From an uncultured virus (IMG/VR IMGVR_UViG_3300031758_000014) (Duplodnaviria; Heunggongvirae; Uroviricota; Caudoviricetes): DNA of 64,000 bases. A program made the position numbers and the translations under genes. The notes below the pieces were generated by a model. That model searched no databases. It saw only the letters and a list, made by a program, of their open reading frames with translations, and had not been told where the DNA came from. Positions 1,807 to 63,998 of the stretch are shown in pieces. Positions within the stretch are counted from its first letter, which is position 1. Every line of letters starts with the position of its first letter. The DNA is taken from IMG/VR virus record IMGVR_UViG_3300031758_000014. One strand, 5' to 3'.

Positions 1807-2226
1807 TTAATTTATTAGTGTTTCTAATTGGTAATCTCTTCTTAGTTGAGTTATTGTTCCTTCGAAAGTAGATTGGAAACGTGTGAATTTCCATTTAACA
1901 TCGTTTAGGATTAGGAAGCCTGTTTTTGGGCATTTAGATTGAATTACTTTACCGTTTCTTGGTATGATATGTTTATAGATTGCGTCTTTGTTTGTAACGA
2001 TTATGATTGGTTTAGAGTAGTCGAAGTTATCGAATTGTTTAACGATTTCTGGTATTGATATACCTGTGTGGGTACCAACTTTGAATATTTGGATATTTTC
2101 TTTACCTAATATATCGGATAATTCGTTTGCGATTGCGTGTACGTTAAACTCGGTTGTTTTGATAACGTTTATTATTCCGATTTCTAATCCGATTATTTGT
2201 GATTTTATTATAGTGTCAAGGTTCAT
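1807..2226 (-). CDS. hypothetical protein with RDxKL-type tail
   Basis: ends RRDYQLETLIN. Confidence 0.7.
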   Translation of the reverse strand: MNLDTIIKSQIIGLEIGIINVIKTTEFNVHAIANELSDILGKENIQIFKVGTHTGISIPEIVKQFDNFDYSKPIIIVTNKDAIYKHIIPRNGKVIQSKCPKTGFLILNDVKWKFTRFQSTFEGTITQLRRDYQLETLIN

Positions 2227-2310
2227 ATCTCTTATTTTGTTTTAGTATTTTATACTCTCACTCTGTGAGTATAAAGATAATGATTTTATCTGTATATCAC
2301 AAGCTAATGA

Positions 2311-2336
2311 TACTAAAATCCGCACGGATTTTAGTA
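2311..2336. repeat. 26-bp palindromic repeat, copy 4
   Basis: TACTAAAATCCG-CA-CGGATTTTAGTA, perfect 12-bp arms. Confidence 0.9.
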
Positions 2337-2412
2337 GTTTCTTTAGAAACTCTAAACGAAGTTTAGTACCTGAGTTAACGAAGGTTCACTATTTTTCCAC
2401 GAAGTCAGAAAC

Positions 2413-2622
2413 CTATTTTTTCTCTTCGGGTATAATGAATAGTTCTTTGAGGCCTTCTATGGTACAAAGTCTTAATTGAGAGCTTCCATTCTCATTTATC
2501 CAGAACGCTGGACCTTCTAATCCGTACCAGTTTAGGACATCTTCCGATGCAATCTCTATTATTGTTGAAATAGTCCCTGAGTTTTTAGATGTGAATTCAT
2601 CACCTTTCTTGTAATCTTTCAT
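2413..2622 (-). CDS. hypothetical protein
   Basis: ORF; likely start MKDYKKGD. Confidence 0.65.
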   Translation of the reverse strand: MKDYKKGDEFTSKNSGTISTIIEIASEDVLNWYGLEGPAFWINENGSSQLRLCTIEGLKELFIIPEEKK

Positions 2623-2636
2623 GATGTTTTTTATAT

Positions 2637-2939
2637 TTAACAAGCACTACTGACCGTTTCCGAATAGAGAGTTACGTCATAACCGTGAGAATAAAAATCA
2701 CCCAACCCACCACTATCAATTACAAGTTTGTGGTCAAAATCGGGATGAATTACTACTACTTGCGTTCCATCATCTGTTTCGATATTATCCGTTGTTGCAC
2801 CTATACAGTCAAGGAAATGTTGCATACTTTGGATGTTATCCATTTCCTGTATTGAATAGTCAATAATGCGATAACTATTTTCGCCTTGTTCAAACATTTC
2901 CTTTACGGAGTTTGGTATTTCATAAATTACTGTTGCCAT
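2637..2939 (-). CDS. hypothetical protein
   Basis: 100 aa ORF next to an attC-like site. Confidence 0.7.
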   Translation of the reverse strand: MATVIYEIPNSVKEMFEQGENSYRIIDYSIQEMDNIQSMQHFLDCIGATTDNIETDDGTQVVVIHPDFDHKLVIDSGGLGDFYSHGYDVTLYSETVSSAC

Positions 2940-2997
2940 TGCTTTTGATTTTTATTTGTGTTTCAAATTAAGTTCCTACTAAATTACCCGTGCCAGC

Positions 2998-3078
2998 GTA
3001 TAACAGCGGTTTTGTGCAAGCTGCTCGACCGCTCAATGCCAAGGCTTCGTAGCCTAACACAAAACCGCAAAACGGGCC
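2998..3078. repeat. attC-like site (right end degenerate)
   Basis: GTATAAC, perfect arms GCGGTTTTGTG/CACAAAACCGC. Confidence 0.55.
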
Positions 3079-3079
3079 A

Positions 3080-3310
3080 TTAATACACCGACACCTTTTC
3101 GAGTGTGGCTTCTATATCTGACAACAATCCTTTTGCCCATAAATTAGGCTTAAATTGTCTTAAAATATCTCTCATTTCAATCAAGTCACCTTGAGAAAAT
3201 TCGATATTCACTATTGCTTCTTTGAGTGGTAAGAAGTCTGTTTCTTCTTCTGTGTGTTCGATAATTTTTTCTTCGTATCTCATTTTGTGAAATTTAACGG
3301 CACATAACAA
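3080..3310 (-). CDS. hypothetical cassette-like protein
   Basis: ORF bracketed by attC-like sites; start lies in the repeat end. Confidence 0.6.
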   Translation of the reverse strand: MLCAVKFHKMRYEEKIIEHTEEETDFLPLKEAIVNIEFSQGDLIEMRDILRQFKPNLWAKGLLSDIEATLEKVSVY

Positions 3311-3397
3311 GGGCTTTGTGTAATAGCCCTATCAAGTGTCGTGGTTAATTTTAAGTTTCTACTAAGGACTACTACGCAAAGCCCCGATACGTTAGTG
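3302..3397. repeat. attC-like site
   Basis: ACATAAC...GGGCTTTGTGTA/TACGCAAAGCCC...GTTAGTG; right end complementary to GCACACTAAC at 3520-3529. Confidence 0.65.
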
Positions 3398-3878: not shown

Positions 3879-4082
3879 TTAGATTATTCCAAGTTCATTT
3901 AACTTCTCTTCTCTTATTTCTTGTTGTGTTCTGAAAAAGTCTTTACCTATCAATTGCATATGACCTTCATCATCTATGATCCAATATTGGTGAGTTGAAT
4001 GTGCGTTTACTTGGTAGGTCTTGCCTTTAGTTATTTTGTAAGTACCTTCAGCTATACATATAATATTCATTTGTTGGTCCAT
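3879..4082 (-). CDS. DUF6501/SH3-like small protein with tail
   Basis: ICI...ITKGKTY...IIDDEG; ends IREEKLNELGII. Confidence 0.7.
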   Translation of the reverse strand: MDQQMNIICIAEGTYKITKGKTYQVNAHSTHQYWIIDDEGHMQLIGKDFFRTQQEIREEKLNELGII

Positions 4083-8143: not shown

Positions 8144-8479
8144 TCATAATTCTAATATTAATTTTAATCTCATATCTCTTCTTAATTCTTTACCATCAGA
8201 TCTGTTTCCACAGATAATTTCAATTGCGTATTCTAAAGCATCCTTATATGTTTTAAATAGAATCTCATTATTATCTCCATAACCACCACACATCATAGTT
8301 CCACCTGGATAACTAATATTAATAGACCATCTCCAACCAGAGTATTCATCATCATAAAACCCATCAAGAGTTATATTCCACTCATAATGCGACTTTAACT
8401 CATGGTAAAATTGGCAATCAGTACCATAGTTGAATACTTTTTGGCTAGTAAAAGTATTTAAATCTGTACTATAATCCAT
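8144..8479 (-). CDS. hypothetical protein with tail
   Basis: ends RRDMRLKLILEL. Confidence 0.7.
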   Translation of the reverse strand: MDYSTDLNTFTSQKVFNYGTDCQFYHELKSHYEWNITLDGFYDDEYSGWRWSINISYPGGTMMCGGYGDNNEILFKTYKDALEYAIEIICGNRSDGKELRRDMRLKLILEL

Positions 8480-8748: not shown

Positions 8749-9111
8749 TTATATACCTAAATGTGTAAGTCTCGAATCTCTTATCTGAGCCAGATATACT
8801 CTTAAAGATTCTTCTGCTCTTTGTATTTTGTTATCATTCATATATAACCAAACCTTAATAAGAGATTGGTGTCTTTCATTTAGGTCGGATAGGACTTGAT
8901 CATCTGCCTGGTCTTCATCGATGAGGTCCACCATATGCATTCCTACTATAAGTCTTTCGAATGGATCTGTTATTGTATCCAGTTTATCAGCGAACTCTGA
9001 TTTAATATTGGTTACATTATGTTTCTCTAAGATTTCAGGGAATGCATCTTTTACATAATCATGTTTCTCTAAGAAATCTTTTAACTTATTTAAAATATTG
9101 GTGGTATTCAT
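8749..9111 (-). CDS. hypothetical protein with tail
   Basis: ends IRDSRLTHLGI. Confidence 0.75.
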   Translation of the reverse strand: MNTTNILNKLKDFLEKHDYVKDAFPEILEKHNVTNIKSEFADKLDTITDPFERLIVGMHMVDLIDEDQADDQVLSDLNERHQSLIKVWLYMNDNKIQRAEESLRVYLAQIRDSRLTHLGI

Positions 9112-9411: not shown

Positions 9412-9711
9412 TTAATAAGTTTTTAATAAGTTTGCTAATCTAACATCTCTCAGAAGTATTCTAACATCTTCTGAATATTCAAATAGGTGTTTATCTTTTA
9501 TTTTATGAAGATCCCACCAAATATTGGTTTGATAAGACCCATTTTTCGGGTATCGAACCGTTATGTCCCAAATACCCTTTTTACTTCTACGTCCTATATT
9601 TGCATCACAACCTTCCCATGGGCCGGATGTAAACTTTACGCCTTTACCCTCTAATATATTCATAGGGTGTGAGCATTTTCTTAATGCTTGTCTCCGTTTC
9701 TTAGAACTCAT
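9412..9711 (-). CDS. hypothetical protein, basic N-terminus and tail
   Basis: MSSKKRRQALRK; ends LRDVRLANLLKTY. Confidence 0.7.
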   Translation of the reverse strand: MSSKKRRQALRKCSHPMNILEGKGVKFTSGPWEGCDANIGRRSKKGIWDITVRYPKNGSYQTNIWWDLHKIKDKHLFEYSEDVRILLRDVRLANLLKTY

Positions 9712-10940: not shown

Positions 10941-11180
10941 TTATTCAAGTAAAGTGGATAATCTCATATCTCTCAACTCCTCTTTGGTATAAAAGAATTT
11001 CCCATAGTAATGAATATCATATTCATCTGGAGAAAAGAACCAAGCTTTTAAAGTATCATCATAAATATTTAGACCACCATATGTATTTTTTATTACATAT
11101 TCTTTACCAATAGTCAATTTATTATGGTTATTATAAATTGAGCTCGTTTTAGCAATTAATATATCTCCCTTTTTAAACAT
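10941..11180 (-). CDS. DUF6501-like protein with tail
   Basis: LTIGKEY; ends YTKEELRDMRLSTLLE. Confidence 0.7.
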   Translation of the reverse strand: MFKKGDILIAKTSSIYNNHNKLTIGKEYVIKNTYGGLNIYDDTLKAWFFSPDEYDIHYYGKFFYTKEELRDMRLSTLLE

Positions 11181-11594: not shown

Positions 11595-11807
11595 TTAATT
11601 TTCTCCAAGTAACTCACTAAGTTTTTTATCACGAACTTCAGCTTTATTTTTCACCATTCTTTCCACTTCCACTCTCAATTCAAATGGCTCTAATATAGCA
11701 ATTAATCCACCACTATTATAAATTTCAATAGAAGCAAAATTTTCAGGTATGTACTTAATCTTACACCCAGGATTGAGCTTCTCATATTCTTTAATTAACT
11801 TTTTCAT
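11595..11807 (-). CDS. hypothetical protein with tail
   Basis: ends KAEVRDKKLSELLGEN. Confidence 0.7.
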   Translation of the reverse strand: MKKLIKEYEKLNPGCKIKYIPENFASIEIYNSGGLIAILEPFELRVEVERMVKNKAEVRDKKLSELLGEN

Positions 11808-11863: not shown

Positions 11864-12433
11864 TTAACTCATCAGTTGATTGATTTTAATATCTCTCAAT
11901 TCTCCTTTAAAGGTTTTTTTTATTATTTCTATAATAGTTTAAAAATCTGGTTCAGTTTGTGAAGAACTTAGATTTAATGTAAATGAATCATATTTAATAT
12001 AACCATAATCGATTTTGGTATCTGTACCGACTAATCTGGATCCAGTATATCTAAATCCTGGATCTCTTCTTTTTTCAATATCATTTCTATTATATGAGTA
12101 TTCAACATCTTCACTTATTAAAAAATCATATCTATTCCCAAAATTAGTAGCTTCCAGTTTGATTGAAATATTTCCTTTTCTGAATTCCAATACTTCTAAT
12201 CTACTCTTTGATGCAATGTTATCAATTAATAGTTTATTTATTTTGAATCCAATAGTTTCAACTAAATCGTTAATTCTACTATTAGGATTCAGTCTAAACA
12301 TAATTGAATTACCAACTAATCTAATATCAAATAAAGGACCCTCGTGTCTATGACCTTCATTTTGATGTGCGGGCTTTGTCGTATGTGGTTCTTCGGCAAG
12401 ACCCAATCTCCTATCTTGAGTTTCATAGTCCAA
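11864..12433 (-). pseudogene. hypothetical gene with premature TAA before an in-frame tail
   Basis: ORF stops at 11939-11941 but the frame continues TIIEIIKKTFKGELRDIKINQLMS*. Confidence 0.6.
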
Positions 12434-12686
12434 TTTCTTTCAGCTTCATTTCTCTCGTCTCTTCTATGGAGAAGAACCTTCCTTTGCCAAGGGTCAGACG
12501 GTTTCCGTCGTCGCCGATCACCTTGTAGTACTTGTCATAATCAGGGAAATCATCAGGGGATGTCCCGGAGATGTCCTCGCACTCGTAGATCTTCCCTCTC
12601 GTGAGCACCTTGTTGGGGGTGGGATTTTTATATCCCAGGTCGAGCGTTAGGAAGTAGTCTTCCTTGGCAATCAGCTTTGCGGTCAT
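12423..12686 (-). CDS. DUF6501-like protein with tail (GC-rich)
   Basis: LTRGKIY...VIGDDG; ends TREMKLKEIGL. Confidence 0.7.
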   Translation of the reverse strand: MTAKLIAKEDYFLTLDLGYKNPTPNKVLTRGKIYECEDISGTSPDDFPDYDKYYKVIGDDGNRLTLGKGRFFSIEETREMKLKEIGL

Positions 12687-12694
12687 AATATCTT

Positions 12695-12958
12695 TTAACA
12701 TATTCCTAATTCCTTTAGTTTATCATCCCTCATTTTCTCCCTATCTAATTCGAATACATAATGATAGTCTGTGTTTATAGAACCATCTTCTCTTACTATG
12801 GTTATCGAACCTGGTTCAGGAGATCCGGTATGAGGACATGTATAAGGTTCTATGATATCGATTATCTGACCTCTATGATATTTACGAGTGAAATGTGATA
12901 TACTTGGATGAGATTTATATTTGACGAAGTCTCCAATACTTAGTTTATTTTCCATCAC
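12695..12958 (-). CDS. KOW/SH3-like protein with tail
   Basis: IGDFVKY; ends MRDDKLKELGIC. Confidence 0.7.
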   Translation of the reverse strand: MMENKLSIGDFVKYKSHPSISHFTRKYHRGQIIDIIEPYTCPHTGSPEPGSITIVREDGSINTDYHYVFELDREKMRDDKLKELGIC

Positions 12959-13529: not shown

Positions 13530-13868
13530 TTAAATACCTAACTCTTCCAATTTTTTATTTCTAATATAAGATTTACTAGGTAGTAATTGATCTTCTTGAA
13601 ATGTAAGTGTTAGAAAATCAATGTCAAATTCATAACCCATACTGGTTGTATGATTATTTTCAAATGGTGTATTATCCTTAACTACACATAACCACATATT
13701 ATCATGCTTATTATATCTCATAGAGATTATTTCACCTTCAATTTTATAACCATTAGTATTAAGATAACCATCTGTTACAACAGAGTCACCTATTTTAAAT
13801 TTAGGAGCAGGTGCATTATAAAATAATTTATATGTTCTATAAATGAACCAGGTTTTAATTTTTTTCAT
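13530..13868 (-). CDS. KOW/SH3-like protein with tail
   Basis: PKFKIGDSV; ends IRNKKLEELGI. Confidence 0.7.
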   Translation of the reverse strand: MKKIKTWFIYRTYKLFYNAPAPKFKIGDSVVTDGYLNTNGYKIEGEIISMRYNKHDNMWLCVVKDNTPFENNHTTSMGYEFDIDFLTLTFQEDQLLPSKSYIRNKKLEELGI

Positions 13869-14232
13869 TTTTACTTAGAATGGTATTAATCTTTATATCT
13901 CTAATTTCAGCAGTTGTTAGAGCCTCGTCTCTTTGTAGTACAGAATCTAATATTAGTTTTTCTTGTTCGGTCGCAAGACGAGTTGGTCTATTCCATACAG
14001 AAGTACCTTCACCTAATGTCCAGGGGTAAGTGTTGGCCCCATCTGATTTTCTAATGAATACAACACTATTTTTGTGCCAGTGGTTATTCATATTAGAGAA
14101 GCTTTGGCAATCTATTATAGAGTCGAATACATTTTGTGTTGAGTTGGGTCTAAATATACTAAAGCCTTCAGTACCATCAACTCTGATTGATGTTACGTGG
14201 TATGTTTCTCCTTTTTTGAACTCTCTATACAT
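13855..14232 (-). CDS. hypothetical protein with tail
   Basis: IRDIKINTIL near C-terminus. Confidence 0.7.
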   Translation of the reverse strand: MYREFKKGETYHVTSIRVDGTEGFSIFRPNSTQNVFDSIIDCQSFSNMNNHWHKNSVVFIRKSDGANTYPWTLGEGTSVWNRPTRLATEQEKLILDSVLQRDEALTTAEIRDIKINTILSKNEKN

Positions 14233-14818: not shown

Positions 14819-15136
14819 TTATTTTTTTAATAATTCACTTATCTTCTTATCTCTTAAATATGTCTTATATTCGTTCATACTTATTCGATGTATCTCTTCA
14901 TAGAATATTGTCTTCTCCTCAGAGAAAAATGGTTCACTTGAAATCGTTTTACGACGGATTGATATAAAATCATCATCGATTGTATTGTTTGAATCTATTG
15001 TAAATATTCCAATAGATTCATCATCAAAATCCTCCCCTGTAATCTCTGACAATATTTCTATATCGTATTCACCGGAATAATCATTTTTTTCATTCACCAA
15101 ATAAAATAATTCGGTGACCTTTTTAATAGATCTCAT
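14819..15136 (-). CDS. hypothetical protein with tail
   Basis: start MRSIKK just after tRNA-like RNA; ends LRDKKISELLKK. Confidence 0.7.
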   Translation of the reverse strand: MRSIKKVTELFYLVNEKNDYSGEYDIEILSEITGEDFDDESIGIFTIDSNNTIDDDFISIRRKTISSEPFFSEEKTIFYEEIHRISMNEYKTYLRDKKISELLKK

Positions 15137-15574: not shown

Positions 15575-15596
15575 ATTATTTAGCAACCATGTTCGT

Positions 15597-15685
15597 AGTC
15601 AGAAAAGGATTCGAACCTATATAAGCAAAATTTTCAGAATCAGTATCTGAGTCATCTAGCCGTCCTACCATTAGACGATCTGACT
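15597..15685 (-). ncRNA. tRNA-like RNA
   Basis: AGTCAGA/TCTGACT acceptor, GTCTAATGGTAGGAC D-arm, AGGTTCGAATCCT T-arm; aberrant middle. Confidence 0.6.
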
Positions 15686-17466: not shown

Positions 17467-18015
17467 ATGAAAAAATTAAAAACATTTGAAGGTTTTTTTG
17501 ACTTCTTCGAAAAAAGTGATGAACAAAAGTTAAAGTCCGCTAAAAATAAAGTGATTGGACTTTGTAATTTATATTTAATTGGTGATAGCTCTATTGGTAA
17601 AAGGTTTAGAGTTAATGATGATTTATCTGTTGATGTTTATTGTCATGTTGATTTATCTGGTTTAAAGCTAACTAAGTTACCGGTTAAGTTTAATAAAGTC
17701 AATGGTGATTTCAATTGTAGTAACAATCAATTAACATCCTTAGAAGGTGCTCCAAAAGAAATTAATGGGGATTTCAATTGTAGTAATAATCAATTAACAA
17801 CTTTAGTTGGATCACCACAAATTGGTGTGGAAAGATTTGATTGTAGTAAAAATGAATTGACATCTTTAGAAGGTTCACCAAAAAAGGTTTATGTTTTTGA
17901 TTGTAGAGATAATAAATTGACATCTTTGGATGGTGCGCCGACAGTTAGTGGAACTAGTCCAAGTGGTGTTCCTTATCTTTTTTATGTAGGAAATAATATT
18001 AGTTTGAGTAGTTAA
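17467..18015 (+). CDS. leucine-rich-repeat protein with CTS-like leader
   Basis: MKKLKTFEGF; four FxCSxNxLTSLxGxP repeats. Confidence 0.8.
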   Translation: MKKLKTFEGFFDFFEKSDEQKLKSAKNKVIGLCNLYLIGDSSIGKRFRVNDDLSVDVYCHVDLSGLKLTKLPVKFNKVNGDFNCSNNQLTSLEGAPKEINGDFNCSNNQLTTLVGSPQIGVERFDCSKNELTSLEGSPKKVYVFDCRDNKLTSLDGAPTVSGTSPSGVPYLFYVGNNISLSS

Positions 18016-18037
18016 TTGACTACTCAAACTTTTTTTT
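18001..18037. terminator. intrinsic terminator between convergent genes
   Basis: AGTTTGAGTAGT/ACTACTCAAACT hairpin + T run. Confidence 0.8.
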
Positions 18038-18320
18038 ATAAACCCAGTTTTCTTAGTTTTTTATCTCTATTGTACTGTAATAAATCTCTTTCATAAACAA
18101 ATAGGTTCATATCAGAAACACCATGTCCAAGTTCATTAATGGCACCATTATTATAATATAATCGAGTTACTTCATATTTCTTGCCATAAATTAAACCTCT
18201 ATCATTTGAAATTGAAATGATAAAATCACCAATTGATGGATGATCCTTTCCATAATCAATAACTTTTTTTAGTTTAGGTTTCTCCTCAAATATCTTTAAT
18301 AAGAGTTTTAATATTTTCAT
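18036..18320 (-). CDS. DUF6501-like protein with tail, paralog of 37854
   Basis: LIYGKKY; ends NRDKKLRKLGL. Confidence 0.7.
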   Translation of the reverse strand: MKILKLLLKIFEEKPKLKKVIDYGKDHPSIGDFIISISNDRGLIYGKKYEVTRLYYNNGAINELGHGVSDMNLFVYERDLLQYNRDKKLRKLGL

Positions 18321-18329
18321 AAGTCCAAT

Positions 18330-18548
18330 TTAATCACGAGTTTCTACATTACAGAAGTAATTATCGAAATGACCATTACCACATGTTAAATATATTGAAG
18401 TATGACATGTTTCTGATGGTATCTGTTCAAGTTCAGATATATATTTCTCTTTCTTTTTTTTAGACCAAAAGCCAGTGTTTAGACTTTCTATTGATGTATA
18501 TTCATGAAATATTTCACAATCACATTGTTTACATTTTACTTTCTTCAT
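18330..18548 (-). CDS. small Cys-rich protein
   Basis: CKQC...CGNGH. Confidence 0.65.
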   Translation of the reverse strand: MKKVKCKQCDCEIFHEYTSIESLNTGFWSKKKKEKYISELEQIPSETCHTSIYLTCGNGHFDNYFCNVETRD

Positions 18549-18563
18549 AATTCGTTTTTATTT

Positions 18564-18782
18564 TTATATACCCAGAAGATCTTTTAGTTTCTGATCTCTA
18601 TAATACTCTTTATCCATCTGTATTCTGGTTTCATTCATAAAATAATCTATTTTGTATGAATAGTTTGTCTTACCATACCAGTGTATGATTATGTTTTTCT
18701 CTTTTATATCCTTTATAATTCCTCTTATGATATATCCATCTTCAATCCAAAGGTATCTGGTACCAATCTTTATCTCTTTCAT
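18564..18782 (-). CDS. hypothetical protein with tail
   Basis: ends YRDQKLKDLLGI. Confidence 0.7.
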   Translation of the reverse strand: MKEIKIGTRYLWIEDGYIIRGIIKDIKEKNIIIHWYGKTNYSYKIDYFMNETRIQMDKEYYRDQKLKDLLGI

Positions 18783-47134: not shown

Positions 47135-47493
47135 CGAATTTTATATTTATTAAATACTTCTAAGTTGTTTGGTTCTAAAATGAATTGTAATATATTCTCA
47201 CATTGTTGTATGTTTTCTGCTTTGAACCTTACTAAAATTCCACTTTTGTTGGTTTCGTATGGATCAAATGAATTTATCATAAATATCTTATCTTTCGGAT
47301 AAAATGTTGCTGTCGCCATTTCTCTTGAATTATCTTTATCGTGTAATCCAATATTATATAAAAATCTATCATCTTGTTCAGACTTTTCATTTAAGAGTTT
47401 ACTTAATCTAATATCTCTTAAATCTTGTAAACTAACTTCCCAACCGTAGTGGTCTGTTACATTCCATGTGTATAAGTTTCCTTTGTAATCCAT
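47131..47493 (-). CDS. hypothetical protein, internal tail-like motif
   Basis: LRDIRLSKLL near N-terminus. Confidence 0.7.
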   Translation of the reverse strand: MDYKGNLYTWNVTDHYGWEVSLQDLRDIRLSKLLNEKSEQDDRFLYNIGLHDKDNSREMATATFYPKDKIFMINSFDPYETNKSGILVRFKAENIQQCENILQFILEPNNLEVFNKYKIR

Positions 47494-47951
47494 TATATTC
47501 CTATTTCGTTTAACCTCTTATCTCTTAAATATTGTTTAAATCTATCTGGTTTAAATTGAACAATAAATCTACTACCTTGATAAACTATGTATTCTTCTTC
47601 GGTGTGAAGAGATGGGTAGGATAAATTACCTCGATTAAAATAAATTGTACTATATTTATCAATATACTTTATTCCACCAAATATTTCAATAAAAGTCTTT
47701 TCAATTTCATTCACTCTCATTGGTAAATAAGATTTCATATCAAAATCTTTATGAAACATTGAGTTATTTACTAAGTAATCTTTAATTTCTTTTTCGGTAT
47801 TTTTATATTCTTCTTTACTAAATAAACTACTTCTGAAATTAAAATTTACTTTGATAGTTTCATCGTTCATTTCGATGACTTTATAGTCCTCAACTTGTTT
47901 GATCCTATCAATTATGTTAACCCACTCGTTTAATAATATTTTTAAGTTCAT
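47493..47951 (-). CDS. hypothetical protein with tail
   Basis: ends LRDKRLNEIGI. Confidence 0.7.
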   Translation of the reverse strand: MNLKILLNEWVNIIDRIKQVEDYKVIEMNDETIKVNFNFRSSLFSKEEYKNTEKEIKDYLVNNSMFHKDFDMKSYLPMRVNEIEKTFIEIFGGIKYIDKYSTIYFNRGNLSYPSLHTEEEYIVYQGSRFIVQFKPDRFKQYLRDKRLNEIGI

Positions 47952-48208
47952 ATACCTAATCCTGTTATTTTTTTATCTCTCATTTCACTTAAAGTAACAA
48001 AGTCTTCTTTAGGAAAAGGCATGTAACACCAAACAAATCTAATATACGAATAATCAGATGAATTATCTTTTTCTACTAATCTCTTATAGGATTTACCTTC
48101 TTCAACTTCGAAATTTCCCCAATCAACATGTAATATAGATTTTGTTTTGAGACAAATTACATCTTCCACTTTATCCGTATTTCTAGTCATTTTCATTGAA
48201 TTGCTCAT
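47948..48208 (-). CDS. DUF6501-like protein with tail
   Basis: VICLK...EEGKSY; ends MRDKKITGLGI. Confidence 0.7.
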   Translation of the reverse strand: MSNSMKMTRNTDKVEDVICLKTKSILHVDWGNFEVEEGKSYKRLVEKDNSSDYSYIRFVWCYMPFPKEDFVTLSEMRDKKITGLGI

Positions 48209-48726
48209 ATACCTAATTCTTTTAATTTATCGTCTCTTAGTTGTCTTTTTGTATAAAAATATTTTCCGTACTTTAACCAATTTATGTTAAATAACATACC
48301 AAGATGATCATCTTTATCACTTAAAGTTACATAGTAAAATTCATCATTCATACCTTTCTTGATATTATAAATTTTATAACTTTTATCTTTAATTTTATTT
48401 TTAAAATTTTGAGTACCACTATAATACATCGAACTAATTAGTAACAAATCTAATGTTTTATATGGTATATTTTCGACCATGTATATTTCATCATCATAAT
48501 CTGGTATTCTCAAGTATTCTCTAGTTTCACTTTCTGAAATACTCATTGATAATTTATCTAAGATTGCTCTGATACTTAGAATTAGAATGAGTAGTATAAC
48601 TACTGTAATAGTATATTCTTTTGAATTATTTATAACAAATAAAATAGGAGTAAATGAGGCTAAGAGTACTAAAACTCTACTCACTGATCGAATTTTATAT
48701 TGAATTAAAATATTTGTTATTCTCAT
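48205..48726 (-). CDS. membrane protein with tail
   Basis: two TM; ends YGKYFYTKRQLRDDKLKELGI. Confidence 0.7.
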   Translation of the reverse strand: MRITNILIQYKIRSVSRVLVLLASFTPILFVINNSKEYTITVVILLILILSIRAILDKLSMSISESETREYLRIPDYDDEIYMVENIPYKTLDLLLISSMYYSGTQNFKNKIKDKSYKIYNIKKGMNDEFYYVTLSDKDDHLGMLFNINWLKYGKYFYTKRQLRDDKLKELGI

Positions 48727-49822: not shown

Positions 49823-50452
49823 TTATATTCCTATTTTATTTAATTTAATATCTCTTAATTCAGATTTTGTATAATAATTTTCTCTACTGAAGAATTCCTT
49901 CATAGTTGTTTCTGATACAAATTTATCAAGGTGTGATGTGTCCCATGATCCATTTCTATTTGTTTTTACTCTAAGTATTTTAGAGTATGACGTGTGATAA
50001 TATTTAGTATCACCATCTTCTTCAATTTCACTGATTTTATAATCATTATAAATAGTATCCTTTAGAACCTGGCTAAGTTCTAAATTAATATCACTTTCAT
50101 TAACAAAGCAAGATATTAAAACAATAGCAAAAGCAATATAAGCAAATACCATTGTTGTTATACCAAGTTCACTCCATTCAACACTCTTTATAAAAAACTC
50201 TCCTTTATCTTCAAATAGCCTTTGTTCAGTATCATAAACTAAAGCATCTTTATAATAAGTAAGATCATAAAAATGAATTCCATTATCAATAAAGTGTTTA
50301 TCTACTCTATAAAAACAGACGGACTTATCCATTGAAGTTCCTAATGAGTAAAGTAAAATACCAACAGTTAGTATTATAAACTTAACTTTATTCAAAGCGA
50401 TTAAGTTTTTAATGTAGTTTATCCAAAATCTAATTAAGTTTTGTTTAGTCAT
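49823..50452 (-). CDS. membrane protein with tail, paralog of 55038
   Basis: two TM; ends YTKSELRDIKLNKIGI. Confidence 0.7.
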   Translation of the reverse strand: MTKQNLIRFWINYIKNLIALNKVKFIILTVGILLYSLGTSMDKSVCFYRVDKHFIDNGIHFYDLTYYKDALVYDTEQRLFEDKGEFFIKSVEWSELGITTMVFAYIAFAIVLISCFVNESDINLELSQVLKDTIYNDYKISEIEEDGDTKYYHTSYSKILRVKTNRNGSWDTSHLDKFVSETTMKEFFSRENYYTKSELRDIKLNKIGI

Positions 50453-52073: not shown

Positions 52074-53267
52074 TTAATCTTCATCATCCCAATCTTCATC
52101 ATCATCACCATCAGCAGACCATATGATTTCACGAGAACCTTCAAATCTTCTATTACTAATTTTACCAGTATTTCTATCCCAGTTTCTCATGTTATCAACC
52201 GATGGATAAGCACGGTATCCTTCTGGTTTAACTTTAGTGTGAGCAACATATGTTCTACCACCATCATAGATGTAATGCCATCCTTTAGATCTAGCATATT
52301 CTCTAAAAACAGCATTATCTGAATCAGCACTTGTATATATACAATCCATTAAAACACCACCATCATCTAATGTCCAAAGAAGTGCTCTACCAATTATTTT
52401 ATCAGGATTATCTAATGATTTTAAAATAAGTAGTTTAACTGTATCTGGATTATCAATATAGATTTCTAACCAATCTCTTCTACCAACTGCTTGGCAAGAA
52501 CCACCTAAGTTTCCTCTATTTGGGAACTCATAGTTTTCTCTTTTATACCAGTAAAGAAGATCTTCACCATCAACGATTTCAAATCTTGAGAAAACATCAT
52601 TCATTACCGCGATAACACCTCTAAACTCATTTACAAATGTTTCTAATTGAGCATCGTTAAATCTTAAACCTTTAGCATTTAAAAGAGCTCTGATTGCTCT
52701 ACCAATTCTAATAGTTTGTCTTGATGAAGTGAAGACTTTCTTTTTTAATTCTTCATGAGCGTTAGCCAATCTTTCTTGACTATAAACACCTTCACCATTT
52801 TCAAACTTAACATAACACCAAGTTTTATTTGTTCTTGGAGAAGTCCATTTTGATATAACTTCACCATATTCAGTAGCTTGTGGATGATAAACTGGAGTAT
52901 CAACAACCGGTTCATAACCCATTCTTCTAAAGATATTAAGGTTTCCAGCAGTATTTGTTAACCAATTACCTCTACGACCAGTCCATCTAACCATCTCTTT
53001 GTCTAATCTAATAATAGCTTGAGCTGTTCTATCGTTAGTAAATGATAGTTCATTATCGTTATCAATTAAGATATCAAAGAAGTTAGATACAACATCTAAG
53101 TCTTCATTCTCAATTTCTAATAAGGCTTTAGCAACCTCGTTATCAGGTAGTCTTTGTAAAGCCTTTTTAAACTTAGGTGAGTAAGCAACAATTGACTCTA
53201 AAAGAAGTAAACTTTCAACTAAAAGTTTTTCTGATAAGAAATATTTGTAGTTTAATATATTCTTCAT
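52074..53267 (-). CDS. phage protein of GRAxLW/DxIY family, late-type leader; paralog of 55894
   Basis: IRIGR, WYKRENY, GSC, IIGRALLW; TAATATATA at 53273. Confidence 0.8.
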   Translation of the reverse strand: MKNILNYKYFLSEKLLVESLLLLESIVAYSPKFKKALQRLPDNEVAKALLEIENEDLDVVSNFFDILIDNDNELSFTNDRTAQAIIRLDKEMVRWTGRRGNWLTNTAGNLNIFRRMGYEPVVDTPVYHPQATEYGEVISKWTSPRTNKTWCYVKFENGEGVYSQERLANAHEELKKKVFTSSRQTIRIGRAIRALLNAKGLRFNDAQLETFVNEFRGVIAVMNDVFSRFEIVDGEDLLYWYKRENYEFPNRGNLGGSCQAVGRRDWLEIYIDNPDTVKLLILKSLDNPDKIIGRALLWTLDDGGVLMDCIYTSADSDNAVFREYARSKGWHYIYDGGRTYVAHTKVKPEGYRAYPSVDNMRNWDRNTGKISNRRFEGSREIIWSADGDDDEDWDDED

Positions 53268-53437: not shown

Positions 53438-53617
53438 ATGGAAAATATTTATACATGGGAAGAATTTAACGAGTCTTATAACAAACCAAGAGCTGGTGGT
53501 AAAAAAAGATGGTCTGTAAAATACAAAAAATCTATTGACTGTAATAACCCTAAAGGTTTTAGTCAGAAACAATATTGTAAGAGAAAAAGAAAAGGTGGTA
53601 AATACAAGAATAATTAA
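53438..53617 (+). CDS. small basic Cys protein with CTS-like leader (not in ORF track)
   Basis: MENIYTWEEFNES...WSVKYKKSIDCNNPKGFSQKQYC; TAATATATA upstream, terminator downstream. Confidence 0.7.
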   Translation: MENIYTWEEFNESYNKPRAGGKKRWSVKYKKSIDCNNPKGFSQKQYCKRKRKGGKYKNN

Positions 53618-54163: not shown

Positions 54164-54565
54164 TTAATTATTAGAATAATAATCTGAATCGCATTTTTTA
54201 TATAGATCTTTAATCAGAGTTTCTTTTTTAGAATCCGTTATAGTATAATATAAAATACCGTCTTCAGACTCTTCTTCAACTTCTAAATCAGTAGTATTTA
54301 ACTTACCAACTTCAACAATAAACTTGATAACATTGGAATTTTTTTGAATAATGTGCTTTTCGAGTGGCGTTATATATTCAATTTCATCAATAATAGAACA
54401 TATAAGCAAGATGTATTCATCTAAATTAAATGTTGATTTAACCAAATCACTAAAAGAATCTTTGGTTAGTACTATTTTGTTTTTAATTTTTAATTTATCA
54501 TAAATAGATCTAACCATCTTAGGATTAGTAGATCTTATATATGAAATCAATACATCTAAATTCAT
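54164..54565 (-). CDS. hypothetical protein
   Basis: 133 aa ORF after -7 element. Confidence 0.7.
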   Translation of the reverse strand: MNLDVLISYIRSTNPKMVRSIYDKLKIKNKIVLTKDSFSDLVKSTFNLDEYILLICSIIDEIEYITPLEKHIIQKNSNVIKFIVEVGKLNTTDLEVEEESEDGILYYTITDSKKETLIKDLYKKCDSDYYSNN

Positions 54566-54595
54566 TGTAAATATTTTTACAAATATAAAAAATAA

Positions 54596-55009
54596 TTAAA
54601 TCTTACTACGTTTTATCTCACCATTATCAAAAAATATAGTAACAATCTCTTCAATACCAGTTATTGTTAAAATAGATCTTTCTAAGTCAAAATCAATTTT
54701 CTTTCTCTCATACAAATGAATAACATGAGATGGTTCTCCATTCTTGAATATGATTACACCAAACCAACTATTATACCACTCACCCTTTGTTTCTAAGTTA
54801 TAAACTTTATACTTATCTTCACCAACAGTAAATATTTTAAGTGGCTTATTTGTTAAGTCATAACAAACTTTTGAAAATTGTGTTATGTTTGAGTAATCTT
54901 TTCTCTTTGAAAGATCAATAGTTACTCCTTTATTCATAAGTTGTTTTAAACTGAAAACTGTTTCATTTGGGTTTTCATTTTTAAATGAGTTAAAGTCTTT
55001 AATTAACAT
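54596..55009 (-). CDS. protein with CTS-like leader
   Basis: MLIKDFNSFKNE; TAATATATA at 55032. Confidence 0.7.
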   Translation of the reverse strand: MLIKDFNSFKNENPNETVFSLKQLMNKGVTIDLSKRKDYSNITQFSKVCYDLTNKPLKIFTVGEDKYKVYNLETKGEWYNSWFGVIIFKNGEPSHVIHLYERKKIDFDLERSILTITGIEEIVTIFFDNGEIKRSKI

Positions 55010-55037
55010 TTTAATTTAATATATTTTTTATTATATA

Positions 55038-55637
55038 TTAAATTCCCAACTTATTAAGTATGTTTTCACGTTTTCTTTGAATAGATTTCCACTCTGGGCA
55101 ATTATTTAACTCAGTAAGTGATCTAACTCCAAAGTAGTTAGCTATATTACTCTCAGTTCTTCTATTACTATTTTCACCAATCAATTTATTACCAAAGTAG
55201 TAGTAAAATCTACCATCTTCTACTTCACATTTAGTAAAGAATGAAACTGTTTTTGAAAAGACTCTATCAAGTTGATAATTCGTTTCATCGTCGTTAGCGA
55301 AAATACCAACAACAGCCATTATAAAAGCAATTGTATAAATAATCCAAATAAAAATATTAGCATCATTATACTTATACTCTACAATGTTATTACCCTTTGT
55401 TAATTTGAGTGGTTTAGATTCACTTCTCATTTCTAAATCACCATCATCAAAATAAAAATAACAATGTGATCCTTCAATATTCAATTCTTTAACTACGTGA
55501 GTTACTTCTTTAACATCTGGTAATGAATTTAGTACCGGGTATAAAAGTATTAACAAACCAATAGCAACTGTTTTAACTTTGTTTGTTTTAATAAAGTTTA
55601 ATAAATAAACAAGTGGAAATAGAATAATATTTTTCAT
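55038..55637 (-). CDS. membrane protein with tail, paralog of 49823
   Basis: two TM; ends KRENILNKLGI. Confidence 0.75.
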   Translation of the reverse strand: MKNIILFPLVYLLNFIKTNKVKTVAIGLLILLYPVLNSLPDVKEVTHVVKELNIEGSHCYFYFDDGDLEMRSESKPLKLTKGNNIVEYKYNDANIFIWIIYTIAFIMAVVGIFANDDETNYQLDRVFSKTVSFFTKCEVEDGRFYYYFGNKLIGENSNRRTESNIANYFGVRSLTELNNCPEWKSIQRKRENILNKLGI

Positions 55638-55641: not shown

Positions 55642-55890
55642 TTAAATTCCTAATATTTTTAATTTTTGTTCTCTTATAAAAGAGGTATAACTTCTAAGTG
55701 ATCTTGGGCTAAATGCTTCACCAGTTAAATACTTAAAACTATCTCTTTTAGATTGTTTTATTATTTTTTTAGATGGTTCATCATAATCAACATAAACATA
55801 ACCATCTTCTAATTCTCTAACAAAGCCACTTAAACCGAATTTATCGGAAAGTGGCATTATTATTACAACTCGCTCCCCTACCTTAAACAT
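55642..55890 (-). CDS. KOW/SH3-like protein with tail
   Basis: MFKVGERV; ends IREQKLKILGI. Confidence 0.7.
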   Translation of the reverse strand: MFKVGERVVIIMPLSDKFGLSGFVRELEDGYVYVDYDEPSKKIIKQSKRDSFKYLTGEAFSPRSLRSYTSFIREQKLKILGI

Positions 55891-61687: not shown

Positions 61688-62022
61688 AAAAATTTTCCGA
61701 AATAAATGAAGCTAAATTCTTTTCAGCGGATCCAAGTATTATTAAAAAATACGCTGCTAGAATAATACCATTTTACATAACTGGTGAGTTAGTTTGTAAA
61801 GATACAAAGTTAATTGATGAGTGGTTAGAGATGAATAAAAATAATCAAAAACATCAAAATGAGAATATTGTTTGTGATTTGGAGATAATGGCAGTTAAAG
61901 CTGTTTTGGATTATAGTCCTTTAACTCAAAGTGGATATAGTGTTTTATTTAATGAAATAGATAATAAATGTCCTAAATTAGAAAGATTTATAAGAAATTT
62001 AGTAATCAACTTTAAAAAATAG
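61684..62022 (+). CDS. putative virion internal protein (CTS-like leader)
   Basis: MKKFSEINEA. Confidence 0.7.
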   Translation: MKKFSEINEAKFFSADPSIIKKYAARIIPFYITGELVCKDTKLIDEWLEMNKNNQKHQNENIVCDLEIMAVKAVLDYSPLTQSGYSVLFNEIDNKCPKLERFIRNLVINFKK

Positions 62023-62085
62023 TTTGGATTTTTTATATTAAGAAATTATTATTTCTGATATATACCTTTAAAAAAATCCAAACAA

Positions 62086-62386
62086 ATGAAGTACAATCGA
62101 CCTTAATAAGGTTTCACTTAACGACTTAAATCTTGTCGGTGGTAAAAACGCATCTCTTGGTGAGATGATTCAAAATCTAAAGACGTTGGGAATAAAAGTT
62201 CCTAATGGTTTCGCAATTACAACAGACGCATACCACGATTTTATCAAGTATAATAAACTTGATGAAAAAATAACTAATCTTGTTTCTGATATAGATGATA
62301 GTGATATCAACTTACTTAGAAAAACTGGATTAGAAGTAAGACAATTAAGTTCCTCTTTTTTTATTCTTCTACTTTTTCAATTATAG
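62086..62386 (+). pseudogene. ppsA: phosphoenolpyruvate synthase N-terminal fragment
   Basis: DLNLVGGKNASLGEM..L...GIKVPNGFAITTDAY; frameshift after codon 3 and truncated after about 90 codons. Confidence 0.8.
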
Positions 62387-62561
62387 TCATTAAATTATAT
62401 TCTCTTGAATCTCTTCTCGAATCTTCATATGAATCATATGTTTTGTCTTTGGTAGATGTATATATGAATGTTCTTTTTATAGATATTGCTTGTCTTTTCG
62501 TATCATACATACCTAACTCTAAAATTGGGTCTAAACCATTATCATAATAAACTCTCCACAT
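62361..62561 (-). CDS. hypothetical protein
   Basis: 66 aa ORF, GTG start. Confidence 0.45.
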   Translation of the reverse strand: MWRVYYDNGLDPILELGMYDTKRQAISIKRTFIYTSTKDKTYDSYEDSRRDSREYNLMTIIEKVEE

Positions 62562-62636
62562 AAAAACTTTTTTACTTTATACTATATATTTAAAGAAAAT
62601 ATTACTATATTTACATGTTAAATTAATATATAGATT

Positions 62637-62927
62637 ATGATTAATTGGGATAATTATAAGATTGGTCAAGAACTAAATCTTAAAATAGTAGCCACTAATT
62701 CAGTAGCAAACTTAAAAGTTAAAATATCTGATTTTGAATGGGCACCTAATAGAACATTACATCTTTCTGATGTAGAAGTTATTGAATCTGATGTGGAAGA
62801 TTATCACACAGGTGACTTGTTAAGACTACCGATGATAGTAAAAGATGAATGTTTTAAATTCTTAGTAGTAACGCACTATAAATCTTACAAAGAAGTAGTA
62901 AAAGAAGGATCAATTTGTTTAAACTAA
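62637..62927 (+). CDS. hypothetical protein
   Basis: TAATATATA at 62624. Confidence 0.7.
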   Translation: MINWDNYKIGQELNLKIVATNSVANLKVKISDFEWAPNRTLHLSDVEVIESDVEDYHTGDLLRLPMIVKDECFKFLVVTHYKSYKEVVKEGSICLN

Positions 62928-63145
62928 TCCTTTTTTAAAATTTTATTAAGTTTCCATTCTCTAAGTGCGGCTGGAACTTTTGAATAATAATTTTCATGTA
63001 TAGAAAATGTTAGGTTTTCTTTACCATTCTTTATGGTTATAAAATAAACATCACCTATTCTATTTTCTCGTATAAGTTCATAATCAAAGAAGTTAATATA
63101 AACCTCTTCGATTTCTCCATAAACACTTATTCTAAACTTATCCAT
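62924..63145 (-). CDS. hypothetical protein with tail
   Basis: ends LREWKLNKILKKD. Confidence 0.7.
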   Translation of the reverse strand: MDKFRISVYGEIEEVYINFFDYELIRENRIGDVYFITIKNGKENLTFSIHENYYSKVPAALREWKLNKILKKD

Positions 63146-63557
63146 TTAAAATTTGTTCTAATTTAATATCTCTTTTGGTTGCTTCATCAGCAATCAGTTT
63201 AAGTTCTTTAATATCAACCCATTGACCATTCAAAAAATCAATTATACCATTTCTATTTGATTTATCTCTTACATAATTATCCGTACCTGATATATCTTCA
63301 ACTTTGACTTTAGCTTTTGTATCAGAAACATTCAAAAGTGATACTTCATAATAAACAGTGAACGTATTACCTGATGAATTTTCTTTCAAATCTAAAATAT
63401 GAAGACATTTATCACCAATTCCTAATTTATAAACATCTTTCTTAACTTTAGATTTCAACCTTTCTATTTCAACATTCTTACTCTTTACTTTAATTAAAAG
63501 TAAAATTGTTGATGATATTGTAAATATAAATCCTGTTATAGCAAATGCGAAACTCAT
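63138..63557 (-). CDS. membrane-anchored protein with tail, paralog of 24061
   Basis: N-terminal TM; YEVSLLNVS; ends KRDIKLEQILNG. Confidence 0.75.
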   Translation of the reverse strand: MSFAFAITGFIFTISSTILLLIKVKSKNVEIERLKSKVKKDVYKLGIGDKCLHILDLKENSSGNTFTVYYEVSLLNVSDTKAKVKVEDISGTDNYVRDKSNRNGIIDFLNGQWVDIKELKLIADEATKRDIKLEQILNG

Positions 63558-63559
63558 AA

Positions 63560-63799
63560 TTATTTTTTAGACATTAACTTAATATTATCGGTTGTTGCTT
63601 CCATCATTTCATGAATTGCTTGATGATAAGCAATAAACGCTTTATGAAACTTTAGATTGTTCTCCATAATTTTAGAGTTATTCTCCATCATTTCTGTCGC
63701 ATTTTTAGTTAAATTGTTGAATAGATCAACTGGATTTGTGAACTTTTGATCATTAAAAGCTTTTTGCCACATATCCATCATTTCTTTAAATTGTTCCAT
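63560..63799 (-). CDS. helical hypothetical protein
   Basis: 79 aa, Met-rich amphipathic helices. Confidence 0.65.
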   Translation of the reverse strand: MEQFKEMMDMWQKAFNDQKFTNPVDLFNNLTKNATEMMENNSKIMENNLKFHKAFIAYHQAIHEMMEATTDNIKLMSKK

Positions 63800-63998
63800 C
63801 TTGTAGTATATTTTCTATTTTTTTATTTCTTATTTCATATAAAGGTTTAAAACGCCACATAGGGTAAATGTCATAAAAACTCATATCGTTTTTTATGACA
63901 CTACCATGTTTAAAAGTATCAATTTGATCTAATGTGTATATCTTACCTATTGTTAGGTGACGTTCTACTCCTTTATTATCAATACACAATAGTTTCAT
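63786..63998 (-). CDS. DUF6501-like protein with tail
   Basis: MKLLCI...LTIGKIY...IKND; IRNKKIENIL. Confidence 0.7.
   Translation of the reverse strand: MKLLCIDNKGVERHLTIGKIYTLDQIDTFKHGSVIKNDMSFYDIYPMWRFKPLYEIRNKKIENILQDGTI

Follow-up and report, generated by a model that had tools for sequence, protein, structure and literature searches.

A short C-terminal peptide shared by dozens of small proteins in a clade of huge freshwater phages is a candidate docking helix

Dozens of mostly small proteins encoded in a 64,000-nucleotide stretch of DNA from an uncultured tailed virus (IMG/VR record IMGVR_UViG_3300031758_000014; the whole stretch is called the window) end in the same ten-residue peptide, which we call the tail. 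The window corresponds to bases 99,733-163,732 of one 171,766-bp virus contig (G000). Our data point to a module at the level of the peptide, by prediction a short amphipathic helix, which closes some 75 to 80 mostly small proteins of this phage and dozens more in its relatives. The reading that we favor, at about even confidence, is that the tail serves as a portable docking or recognition helix for one common partner; that there is a single reader, and which protein it would be, are both presumptive.

To define the tail, we searched the whole contig, translated in six frames, with the strict pattern R-[DEN]-x-[KRQ]-[LI]-x-x-[LI]-[GL]-[ILV]. This yielded 48 matches, 47 of them on the minus strand and 42 in the window, and all 48 lie within 2 residues of a stop codon. 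A looser pattern matched the contig 86 times; 81 of these matches are no more than 6 residues away from a stop, and the other 5 are not. Among window open reading frames (ORFs) of at least 30 amino acids (aa), 65 carry a loose tail, including the 42 with a strict one, and about nine further degenerate tails can be recognized by eye (e.g., WREMQLNKIL at 33261, LRDIKLNEIL at 38920, and RKRENILNKLGI at 55038). An earlier inspection of the window from its letters and translated ORFs (the sequence-only reading) had put the number at about 70, which is right given the 65 loose and roughly nine degenerate tails, and the six tails that it quoted as examples all sit where it placed them. In 1000 within-protein shuffles of 331 crude gene calls, strict terminal matches averaged 0.006 and never exceeded 1, against 42 observed; loose terminal matches averaged 0.03 with a maximum of 2, against 72 observed; and strict internal matches numbered 0, against 0.06 in the shuffles. 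Enrichment of the tail at C termini, as the sequence-only reading had proposed, is real and far beyond chance. About 20% of the phage genes, one in five, carry the tail, and nearly all of these are small and lie outside the late-promoter class. No second tag was evident among the non-tail small genes, in which only residual degenerate tails were seen.

Selection on the tail was evaluated in three genomes, namely, the contig and two relatives taken whole from IMG/VR, G001 (476 kb, 30% GC) and G002 (344 kb, 36.6% GC). Across 41 homologous tail-bearing pairs, synonymous differences are near saturation (pS 0.635; pN 0.252), with a dN/dS of ~0.22, and the tails are 62% identical, compared to ~38% in the BLAST-aligned parts of the bodies. 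Codon choice in the tails equals that in the bodies at 8 of 10 positions. The two deviating positions are Gly9, with an excess of GGA, and Ile10, where ATA is used in 33 of 38 cases versus 19 expected; this surplus is accounted for by the many genes that finish in ATA-TGA, with the following ATG overlapping the stop. Leu is encoded by TTA, CTA, CTT, CTG, and TTG and Arg by AGA, CGN, and AGG; the synonymous variation noticed earlier is genuine. In G001, all 16 strict matches lie at stops, and in G002, 58 of 59 do. Since synonymous sites are nearly saturated, codons resemble the background, and the same peptide is kept at 30% and at 36.6% G+C, conservation at the DNA level alone is ruled out. 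Thus, the tail is under purifying selection as a peptide, in agreement with the sequence-only reading, and is not a DNA repeat.

A logo and tail census built on 204 tails of the three genomes showed R at position 1 (fixed by the pattern yet kept in degenerate tails), D/E/N at 2, K/R/Q at 4, L/I at 5 and 8, G (61%) or L/I at 9, and I (50%) or K/N/L/E at 10, preceded by a hydrophobic residue (L/I/W) at −1 and E at −2. No residue follows position 10 in 146 of the 204 tails. Two endings, -L-G-I and -[IL]-L-[KNE], interchange among orthologues of one family and therefore probably have one function. By eye, L-x-x-L-G-I fits a helix with a terminal glycine cap, and AF2 models of two window proteins place a helix over the tail, with beta strands reaching right up to it. 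In a 74-aa SH3-like barrel protein (22889-23113, strict tail REKQLNELGI), the helix spans residues 61-71 with a pLDDT of 94, dropping to 85 at its end. In a 149-aa protein (24061-24510, strict tail RDRKLSELGIE), it spans residues 135-145 with a pLDDT of ~72, behind an N-terminal membrane helix and a beta domain with pLDDT >90 (body 94). These predictions suggest a packed tail helix in the 74-aa protein and a mobile one in the 149-aa protein.

The contig belongs to a phage and has a G+C content of 26-31%. It encodes a baseplate wedge (phrog_219), D12 methylases, enzymes of nucleotide metabolism, and numerous homing endonucleases. NusG, IF3, and a full-length ClpP are specified by host-like genes, and one protein has a type-IX-secretion sorting domain. 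No capsid protein was identified in the 172-kb contig, which is probably a piece of a much larger genome. By tblastn with the baseplate wedge, the closest named relatives are the uncultured huge phages LR745206.1 (634 kb, 63% identity) and LR756502.1 (642 kb), followed by LR756504.1 and LR756501.1 and, farther away, by Tenacibaculum, Flavobacterium, and Chryseobacterium jumbo phages. We infer a Bacteroidota host.

To delineate the spread of the tail, we searched phage and cellular genomes. Tail ORFs of at least 60 aa number 75 in G000, 49 in G001, and 80 in G002. An 18-column tail profile gave 36 matches in LR745206.1 and 15 in a further relative, G003 (E ≤ 10), as well as 21 in LR756502.1 (E ≤ 0.01), and zero in LR756501.1, LR756504.1, LR756500.1, Tenacibaculum phage pT24, and Flavobacterium phage MaF61. 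With a barrel-tail protein as the query, tblastn against 50,697 phage records returned only the uncultured LR745206.1. A degenerate DNA pattern had 64 matches at 57 loci in IMG/VR, 48 of them within 3 residues of a stop and the other 16 representing an internal motif of another family. In 185,579 prokaryote species (one genome each), the degenerate pattern had 17 matches, of which only 3 are 6 or fewer residues from a stop; one of the 3 is a 3.5-kb contig bearing three tails. The tail is a phage feature, clade-wide in the huge relatives (344-642 kb). Its near absence from cellular C termini shows that no common host motif has been copied, and mimicry of such a motif was rejected. No description of the tail turned up in the searchable literature, nor did any of DUF6501, and within that scope the earlier statement that no such system has been described stands. 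In LR756504.1, five tandem small paralogues at ~606.1-607.2 kb (L131:1765-2915, plus strand) end in R-K-x-K-I-x-x-L-L, the frame of the tail with Lys for Asp/Glu at position 2; 9 matches at E ≤ 0.05 were found there, the 5 seeds included.

The tail behaves as a module. The 120-aa protein at 8749-9111 carries a strict tail (RDSRLTHLGI) on a body that appears helical by eye; its homologue in G002, 47% identical, terminates precisely ahead of the tail. A 280-aa protein of G001 combines a zinc ribbon, a tail-like segment, and a nucleotidyltransferase in one chain; on the contig, its gene is split (L007:6623-8600, contig 169620-171343, outside the window) into a tailed 82-aa zinc-ribbon protein and a 205-aa transferase, with a GIY-YIG/homing-endonuclease gene on the opposite strand between the two pieces. 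A body homologue exists in the three genomes for only 67 of the 204 tail ORFs; the tail persists in a rapidly changing set of genes. As noticed earlier, the tail is also kept on unit-final genes, e.g., the 94-aa ORF at 18036-18320 (strict tail RDKKLRKLGL), the last of its minus-strand unit.

We then compared the bodies after stripping the tails. BLASTP placed 80 contig tail ORFs into 67 clusters and the 204 ORFs of the three genomes into 154 clusters, 137 of them singletons, and a profile-profile alignment (hhalign) of the two modelled families covered only 16 columns, all in the tail. Of 75 contig tail bodies, 20 are acidic and 9 basic; 6 contain a membrane-like segment, and one is a zinc ribbon. 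None of the 65 window tail proteins passed a Pfam cut-off, and 5 had weak PHROG matches, all to families without an assigned function. A body labelled as a PolB-like palm had no Pfam match and nothing from the protein atlas, leaving that label unconfirmed; the atlas likewise gave no usable match for two non-barrel tail proteins, and a cluster look-up of 10 barrel-tail proteins returned metagenomic records only. By detectable homology, the bodies do not form a single paralogous family; a remote common ancestry may nonetheless underlie them. The sequence-only reading had called the bodies unrelated, which fits the 154 clusters and 137 singletons and fails for 35 of the 204 bodies, which belong to one SH3-like barrel family, and for the two modelled proteins, both of which are a barrel followed by a helix.

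How would a docking helix work? In the model that we propose, one shared reader in the cytoplasm of the infected cell would bind the tail helix, with the bodies giving diverse activities and the tail a common address. The leading specific version of the docking reading, although unlikely to be right as it stands, names the clade's own Clp machinery (ClpP and a ClpC-type unfoldase) as candidate reader; recognition would then keep tail proteins short-lived or employ them as adaptors. The contig ClpP (L003:16565-17314, minus strand; contig 54562-55314) is a true full-length ClpP (Pfam E 2.7e-53; PDB ClpP E 6e-47), and its gene lies in a host-type-promoter unit, not with structural genes. At 80-82% identity across the three phages, it is the best-conserved protein common to the three genomes in our comparison table. 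G002 encodes a ClpC-type unfoldase that aligns to a solved ClpC from residue 149 on (PDB ClpC E 6e-214) and hence is without the N-domain, together with a second ClpP adjoining a sigma factor, DnaK, DnaJ, and GrpE (the loci of this chaperone/protease set are L088:13802-15919, L090:659-1702, L090:18007-19902, L089:18678-19214, and L084:14784-16025). The unfoldase is present in all five complete tail-bearing relatives, with ~70% identical orthologues of the G002 copy in W01, W03, G001, and G003.

Known C-terminal tags and adaptor tails of Clp systems include the ssrA tag, the MuA tail, and the XB peptide of SspB. As in those systems, the tail would depend on its terminal position for function; a Clp reader serves many substrates and adaptors, and the phage clade encodes both ClpP and a ClpC-type unfoldase. 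In contrast to the Clp tags, the tail differs in sequence, is predicted to be helical, abuts a fold, and has a variable last residue. A bolder extension, which we regard as a long shot, is a viral adaptor library in which dozens of fast-evolving small proteins, produced ahead of the late genes, would each grip a different host protein with the body, and the helix would hand the prey (or the carrier) to the N-domain-less ClpC-type unfoldase and ClpP, for host takeover and counter-defence. Such a library would be a bacteriophage counterpart of substrate receptors of the F-box or PRANC type, and the [LI]-G-[ILV] terminus of the tail might even imitate the loop with which the unfoldase engages ClpP. 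The docking domains known as F-box, SOCS box, poxviral PRANC, and cohesin-dockerin modules have 40-70 residues and known partners. The tail proteins share with them a variable body, a constant and presumably docking element, and a large within-genome library, and differ in that the element has only 10-14 residues and no multi-barrel scaffold occurs in the three genomes. A cohesin-like scaffold was rejected as reader, since neither a tail-less nor a multi-barrel protein matched the barrel profile in G000, G001, or G002. Sliding-clamp motifs have the consensus QL[SD]LF or QLxLxL, and the [KRQ]-[LI]-x-x-[LI]-[GL]-x of the tail is spaced differently.

Several observations weigh against the docking reading, in addition to the tentative promoter classes described below. 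Tail-less LR756504.1 encodes ClpP (44% identity) as well as a homologue of ClpC (40%), so the presence of a cognate unfoldase and peptidase is unspecific; tail-less LR756501.1 has a ClpC homologue without ClpP. For this reason, and because the genomes with tails all belong to a single clade, a search for the reader by presence or absence of ClpP and the ClpC-type unfoldase did not discriminate. C-terminal degrons of known Clp systems lack structure and are recognized through their terminal residues, whereas the tail can end in I, L, V, K, N, E, or D and no linker separates its helix from the folded body, positions −10 to −1 being rich in F, L/I, K, E, and W. A pLDDT of 94 for the helix of the 74-aa family is what would be expected of an integral, cis-packed element and not of a free tag. 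Moreover, an iterated profile joins 35 of the 204 bodies (17 of 75 on the contig) in the SH3-like barrel family, 44 of 44 barrel-profile matches in the three genomes carry the tail or a degenerate tail, and both AF2-modelled bodies are a small beta-barrel followed by the tail helix. A family-intrinsic origin of the tail is likely; because every barrel member is tailed and both models show a barrel plus a helix, the tail may have begun as the barrel family's own C-terminal helix and spread later.

These data also make a structural or self-association helix the strongest rival, albeit an unlikely one. It holds that the tail is the C-terminal helix of one old, explosively diverged barrel superfamily with assorted N-terminal add-ons and that it completes the fold or oligomerizes. 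In its favor, Foldseek ranks SH3, Tudor, chromo, and KOW domains highest for either model, with weak E values of ~0.1-0.3 and probabilities up to 0.97, and several longer proteins share a YFYTK-x-ELRD stretch before the tail with barrel members. The barrel family has 4062 representatives in metagenomes at E ≤ 1e-3, and of 127 small proteins among the top 150, 111 are tailed. Larger multi-repeat barrel relatives match Pfam DUF6501 and DUF7244; the DUF6501 cut-off is reached by 9 of 13 multi-repeat proteins found with the barrel profile, and the best window protein scores 23.3 bits against a cut-off of 23.8 with a Pfam model that stops before the tail. No tail was found on the six multi-repeat DUF6501 proteins checked, all from outside the three genomes. 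On the other hand, a single superfamily must accommodate 137 singletons among 204 bodies and a profile-profile alignment confined to the tail, as well as the same tail on the helical-by-eye body, on the zinc ribbon, and on the 6 of 75 bodies with membrane-like segments. The 47%-identical homologue does without the tail. The helix is also far better conserved than any of the barrel positions, including the charged R, D/E, and K, which packing does not need, and eighty co-expressed proteins with one oligomerization face would cross-react.

To place the tail genes in the phage program, we analyzed promoter-like words. The word TAATATATA is intergenic in 39 of 45 occurrences and precedes baseplate, other structural, and homing-endonuclease genes. 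In the form (T)TTAATATATA, it occurs on both strands ~10-40 nt before structural, homing-endonuclease, and plus-strand genes (e.g., upstream of window positions 10251, 16601, 35236, and 61034) and is frequent in the relatives (143 in G001 and 55 in G002). It is probably a late or middle promoter of the phage, judging from its placement. Tail genes in late-like units number 1 of 75 in G000, 1 of 64 in G001, and 0 of 77 in G002, although these units hold 15-25% of the crude gene calls. Consistent with the sequence-only reading, neither the RNase H nor the HAD enzyme has the tail, and it is missing from the TAATATATA class on the crude unit analysis just given. On the contig, TAnnTTTG precedes the units of 31 tail genes, and the units of 43 others have neither word. 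TAnnTTTG is about two-fold enriched in non-coding DNA, with a strand bias of 46 versus 13, and is the −7 box of Bacteroidota housekeeping promoters. The tail genes are non-late and probably early, with promoter classes assigned from these words and the early timing from the general TAnnTTTG consensus.

This timing bears on a capsid or compartment address, in which the tail would direct diverse small proteins to the prohead, to be co-injected, or to some other compartment made by the phage, and which we consider improbable. The capsid targeting sequence of phage T4 is N-terminal and is removed by the prohead protease. The tail, by comparison, is C-terminal (48 of 48 strict matches) and predicted to be helical, it closes about a fifth of the genes, and it is shut out of the promoter class that drives baseplate and structural genes. 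Cargo of the T4 type is made late, unlike the tail genes as classified here. Six tail proteins also have membrane-like segments, which argues against packaging. A precedent nonetheless exists in the T-even phages, where a conserved capsid targeting sequence is described on diverse internal proteins (PMC3012670); the likeness is that of one short conserved terminal peptide on diverse, fast-evolving small proteins whose genes lie in plastic regions (PMC3012670). Between related phages, the set of tail genes varies greatly, as would be expected of counter-defence cargo, with a body homologue for 67 of 204. A second precedent is found in encapsulin cargo-loading peptides, described as ~10 residues at the cargo C terminus that bind a pocket of the HK97-like shell (PMC8229669). 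Like the tail, these comprise ~10 residues at the extreme C terminus of varied carriers, and they are transferable and served by one pocket (PMC8229669). Unlike the tail, which has no Ala/Pro/Gly linker before it and dozens of carriers, they follow flexible Ala/Pro/Gly linkers and mark one to a few cargoes per system (PMC8229669).

Gene boundaries were examined next to the tails. The tail gene overlaps the next start in 36 of 68 cases, compared to 25 of 116 other genes of the block; the other 32 have no downstream-start overlap, 11 of them with a gap of >60 nt. We compared contigs of four lake or freshwater runs with window positions 18000-27999. A variant in three runs (X6, X8, and X10) skips 20860-21337, i.e., 478 nt and exactly two tail genes, the 83-aa ORF at 20863-21114 (strict tail REEKLKELGI) and the 77-aa ORF at 21111-21344 (strict tail RDEKLNELGI). 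The junction is a shared exact 12-mer that encodes Gly-Ile-stop, the overlapping ATG, and the next codon. Many more short-sided joints end at tail boundaries, though such joints may stem from related phages or repeats. The tail end with its overlapping stop and start is a natural recombination site for cassette gain and loss. Recombination at this constant gene end can explain cassette turnover and the acquisition of tails by new bodies, and it would offer a possible route by which the tail reaches them. Other strain variants were observed in the window among non-tail genes: at 26863-27535, a lake-metagenome variant deletes most of a 237-aa non-tail gene and has 14 other letters instead, and at 23435-23836, two variants skip 221 and 140 nt among small non-tail ORFs.

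Recombination exactly at the boundary of tail end and start codon counts against a purely protein-level account. It raises a further alternative, in our estimate very improbable, that 30 nt are kept as a DNA linker for shuffling cassettes between co-infecting phages and the peptide is incidental. The two-gene deletion, the additional joints, and the excess of start overlaps would all suit such an element, as would the 55 of 820 tail pairs that share an exact run of at least 12 nt. However, the mean nucleotide identity of tails is only 68% and their median longest exact run 7 nt; every occurrence of the strict motif is coding and in frame; residues are exchanged conservatively (L/I, K/R, D/E/N), with Arg kept through three kinds of codon; and the pS, dN/dS, and background-like codons reported above leave synonymous sites free. 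Because of this codon evidence, a role in recombination does not explain why the tail is conserved. The promoter-stem-loop (PeSL) cassettes of T4-type phages are non-coding and conserved as DNA. The tail resembles them as a repeat at gene boundaries in hyperplastic regions, where recombination between copies alters gene content (here, the 478-nt, two-gene deletion), and differs in being always coding and in frame and conserved as a peptide. Least probable of all is a nascent-peptide signal, in which the last ten residues would act in the ribosome exit tunnel to favor re-initiation at the overlapping ATG: the host group makes little use of Shine-Dalgarno pairing, the phage has its own IF3, the start overlaps are in excess, and the tail always lies inside the tunnel-occupying stretch at the stop codon, but nearly half of the tail genes lack an overlap, tails close unit-final genes such as 18036, many overlapping genes are tail-less, and we know of no resemblance of the tail to arrest peptides.

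If one reader exists, one-fifth of the genes in a huge freshwater phage clade would be wired to a single hub. The docking reading, if true, would make most of these dark-matter small genes approachable together via one bait, one tag, and one mutant set, and would supply a transferable ten-residue tag for Bacteroidota-type hosts. As an evolutionary rule, where a constant gene end overlaps the following start, recombination can add or remove bodies, as seen in wild strains. Even the most conservative reading leaves a very large family absent from the searched literature, with 4062 representative clusters for the barrel subset alone.

The remaining tail-bearing ORFs of the window, like those described above, are all on the minus strand, and we give each with its length, position, and ending. 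Strict tails close barrel-family ORFs of 67 aa (3879-4082, REEKLNELGII; near-threshold for DUF6501), 92 aa (12423-12701, REMKLKEIGL), 89 aa (18976-19245, RDQKLKEIGI), 74 aa (19242-19466, RDKKLKELGL), 80 aa (21341-21583, RDNKLNELGI), 73 aa (22671-22892, REKRLKEIGI), 71 aa (24504-24719, REEKLNELGIC), 76 aa (26311-26541, REIRIKELGIS), 77 aa (29869-30102, REIKLKELGI), 84 aa (37854-38108, RDLKLRKLGINK), and 74 aa (41459-41683, REKKLSDIGL). Loose tails close barrel-family ORFs of 79 aa (10941-11180, RDMRLSTLLE), 80 aa (22379-22621, REIKLNDLLK), and 70 aa (63786-63998, RNKKIENILQDGTI). ORFs with a membrane-like segment comprise one of 202 aa with a loose tail (43322-43930, RDSRINDLLGDN) and three with strict tails, of 179 aa (44729-45268, RDDKLEKLGIK), 173 aa (48205-48726, RDDKLKELGI), and 209 aa (49823-50452, RDIKLNKIGI; followed by a 55-nt gap). 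A 139-aa ORF with a loose tail (63138-63557, RDIKLEQILNG) is a paralogue of the 149-aa membrane protein.

In the first half of the window, further strict tails are found on ORFs of 86 aa (12695-12955, RDDKLKELGIC), 112 aa (13530-13868, RNKKLEELGI), 66 aa (18779-18979, RDKKLKNLGI), 119 aa (20220-20579, RDQKLNELGV), 96 aa (20576-20866, RDQKLNELGI), 115 aa (21580-21927, RERKLNELGI), 75 aa (21924-22151, RERKLNELGI), 97 aa (27544-27837, RDIKLNQLGI), 141 aa (28240-28665, RDYKINSLGI), 80 aa (30099-30341, REEKLKQLGL), and 91 aa (31066-31341, REDRLKELGL). Toward its end follow those of 205 aa (31855-32472, RERKLKELGL), 59 aa (32465-32644, RDWKLKQIGINA), 68 aa (32644-32850, RDKKLTELGI), 86 aa (33518-33778, REKRLDELGV), 31 aa (37148-37243, RNNRIKELGIT), 66 aa (41680-41880, RNSQLEKLGI), 125 aa (44154-44531, RDKKLIRLGI), 77 aa (46901-47134, REERLKELGL), 152 aa (47493-47951, RDKRLNEIGI), 86 aa (47948-48208, RDKKITGLGI), and 82 aa (55642-55890, REQKLKILGI).

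The other loose tails are carried by ORFs of 139 aa (1807-2226, RDYQLETLIN), 111 aa (8144-8479, RDMRLKLILEL), 99 aa (9412-9711, RDVRLANLLKTY), 70 aa (11595-11807, RDKKLSELLGEN), 125 aa (13855-14232, RDIKINTILSKNEKN), 105 aa (14819-15136, RDKKISELLKK), 72 aa (18564-18782, RDQKLKDLLGI), 72 aa (23832-24050, RDKKIENILKR), 114 aa (25083-25427, REEKLNQLLS), and 93 aa (26538-26819, RDEKLNKILE). The list is completed by those of 113 aa (28662-29003, RDDKLNKLFE), 84 aa (30815-31069, RDIRLYLLFI), 70 aa (31338-31550, RDKKLSELLGE), 52 aa (36942-37100, RDLRIDNLLNK), 76 aa (38275-38505, RDVKINQIINK), 115 aa (40067-40414, RDIKLNDLLNES), 155 aa (41877-42344, RDNKLNELLK), and 73 aa (62924-63145, REWKLNKILKKD).

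Apart from the tail genes, ARAGORN called a tRNA-Leu(taa) at 1727-1796 (minus strand) and a tRNA with a four-base anticodon (taag) at 35063-35144 (minus strand), which could reflect an intron, a frameshift suppressor, or a mis-call. Two further tRNAs, at 15596-15685 and 34930-35009 (both minus strand), were found with Rfam only and had no ARAGORN call. A 397-aa protein (52074-53267, minus strand) closes with a strongly acidic run (…DGDDDEDWDDED) and is preceded by the late-like promoter word; it belongs to a family with several copies on the contig (also 66036-67157 and 74649-76364) that is common to G001 and G002. Upstream of its gene, in a region of small ORFs, an 80-nt stretch (window 53510-53592) shows 77-88% DNA identity to T4-like cyanophages (S-CAM9, S-PRM1, P-TIM68, and others), in which it falls in hypothetical genes. 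Several endonuclease-VII-like paralogues lie elsewhere on the contig. Finally, consecutive ORFs of 373, 325, and 343 aa with Intein-splicing and LAGLIDADG domains (L004:9036-12172 and L002:1130-2197, both plus strand) suggest an intein-interrupted gene.

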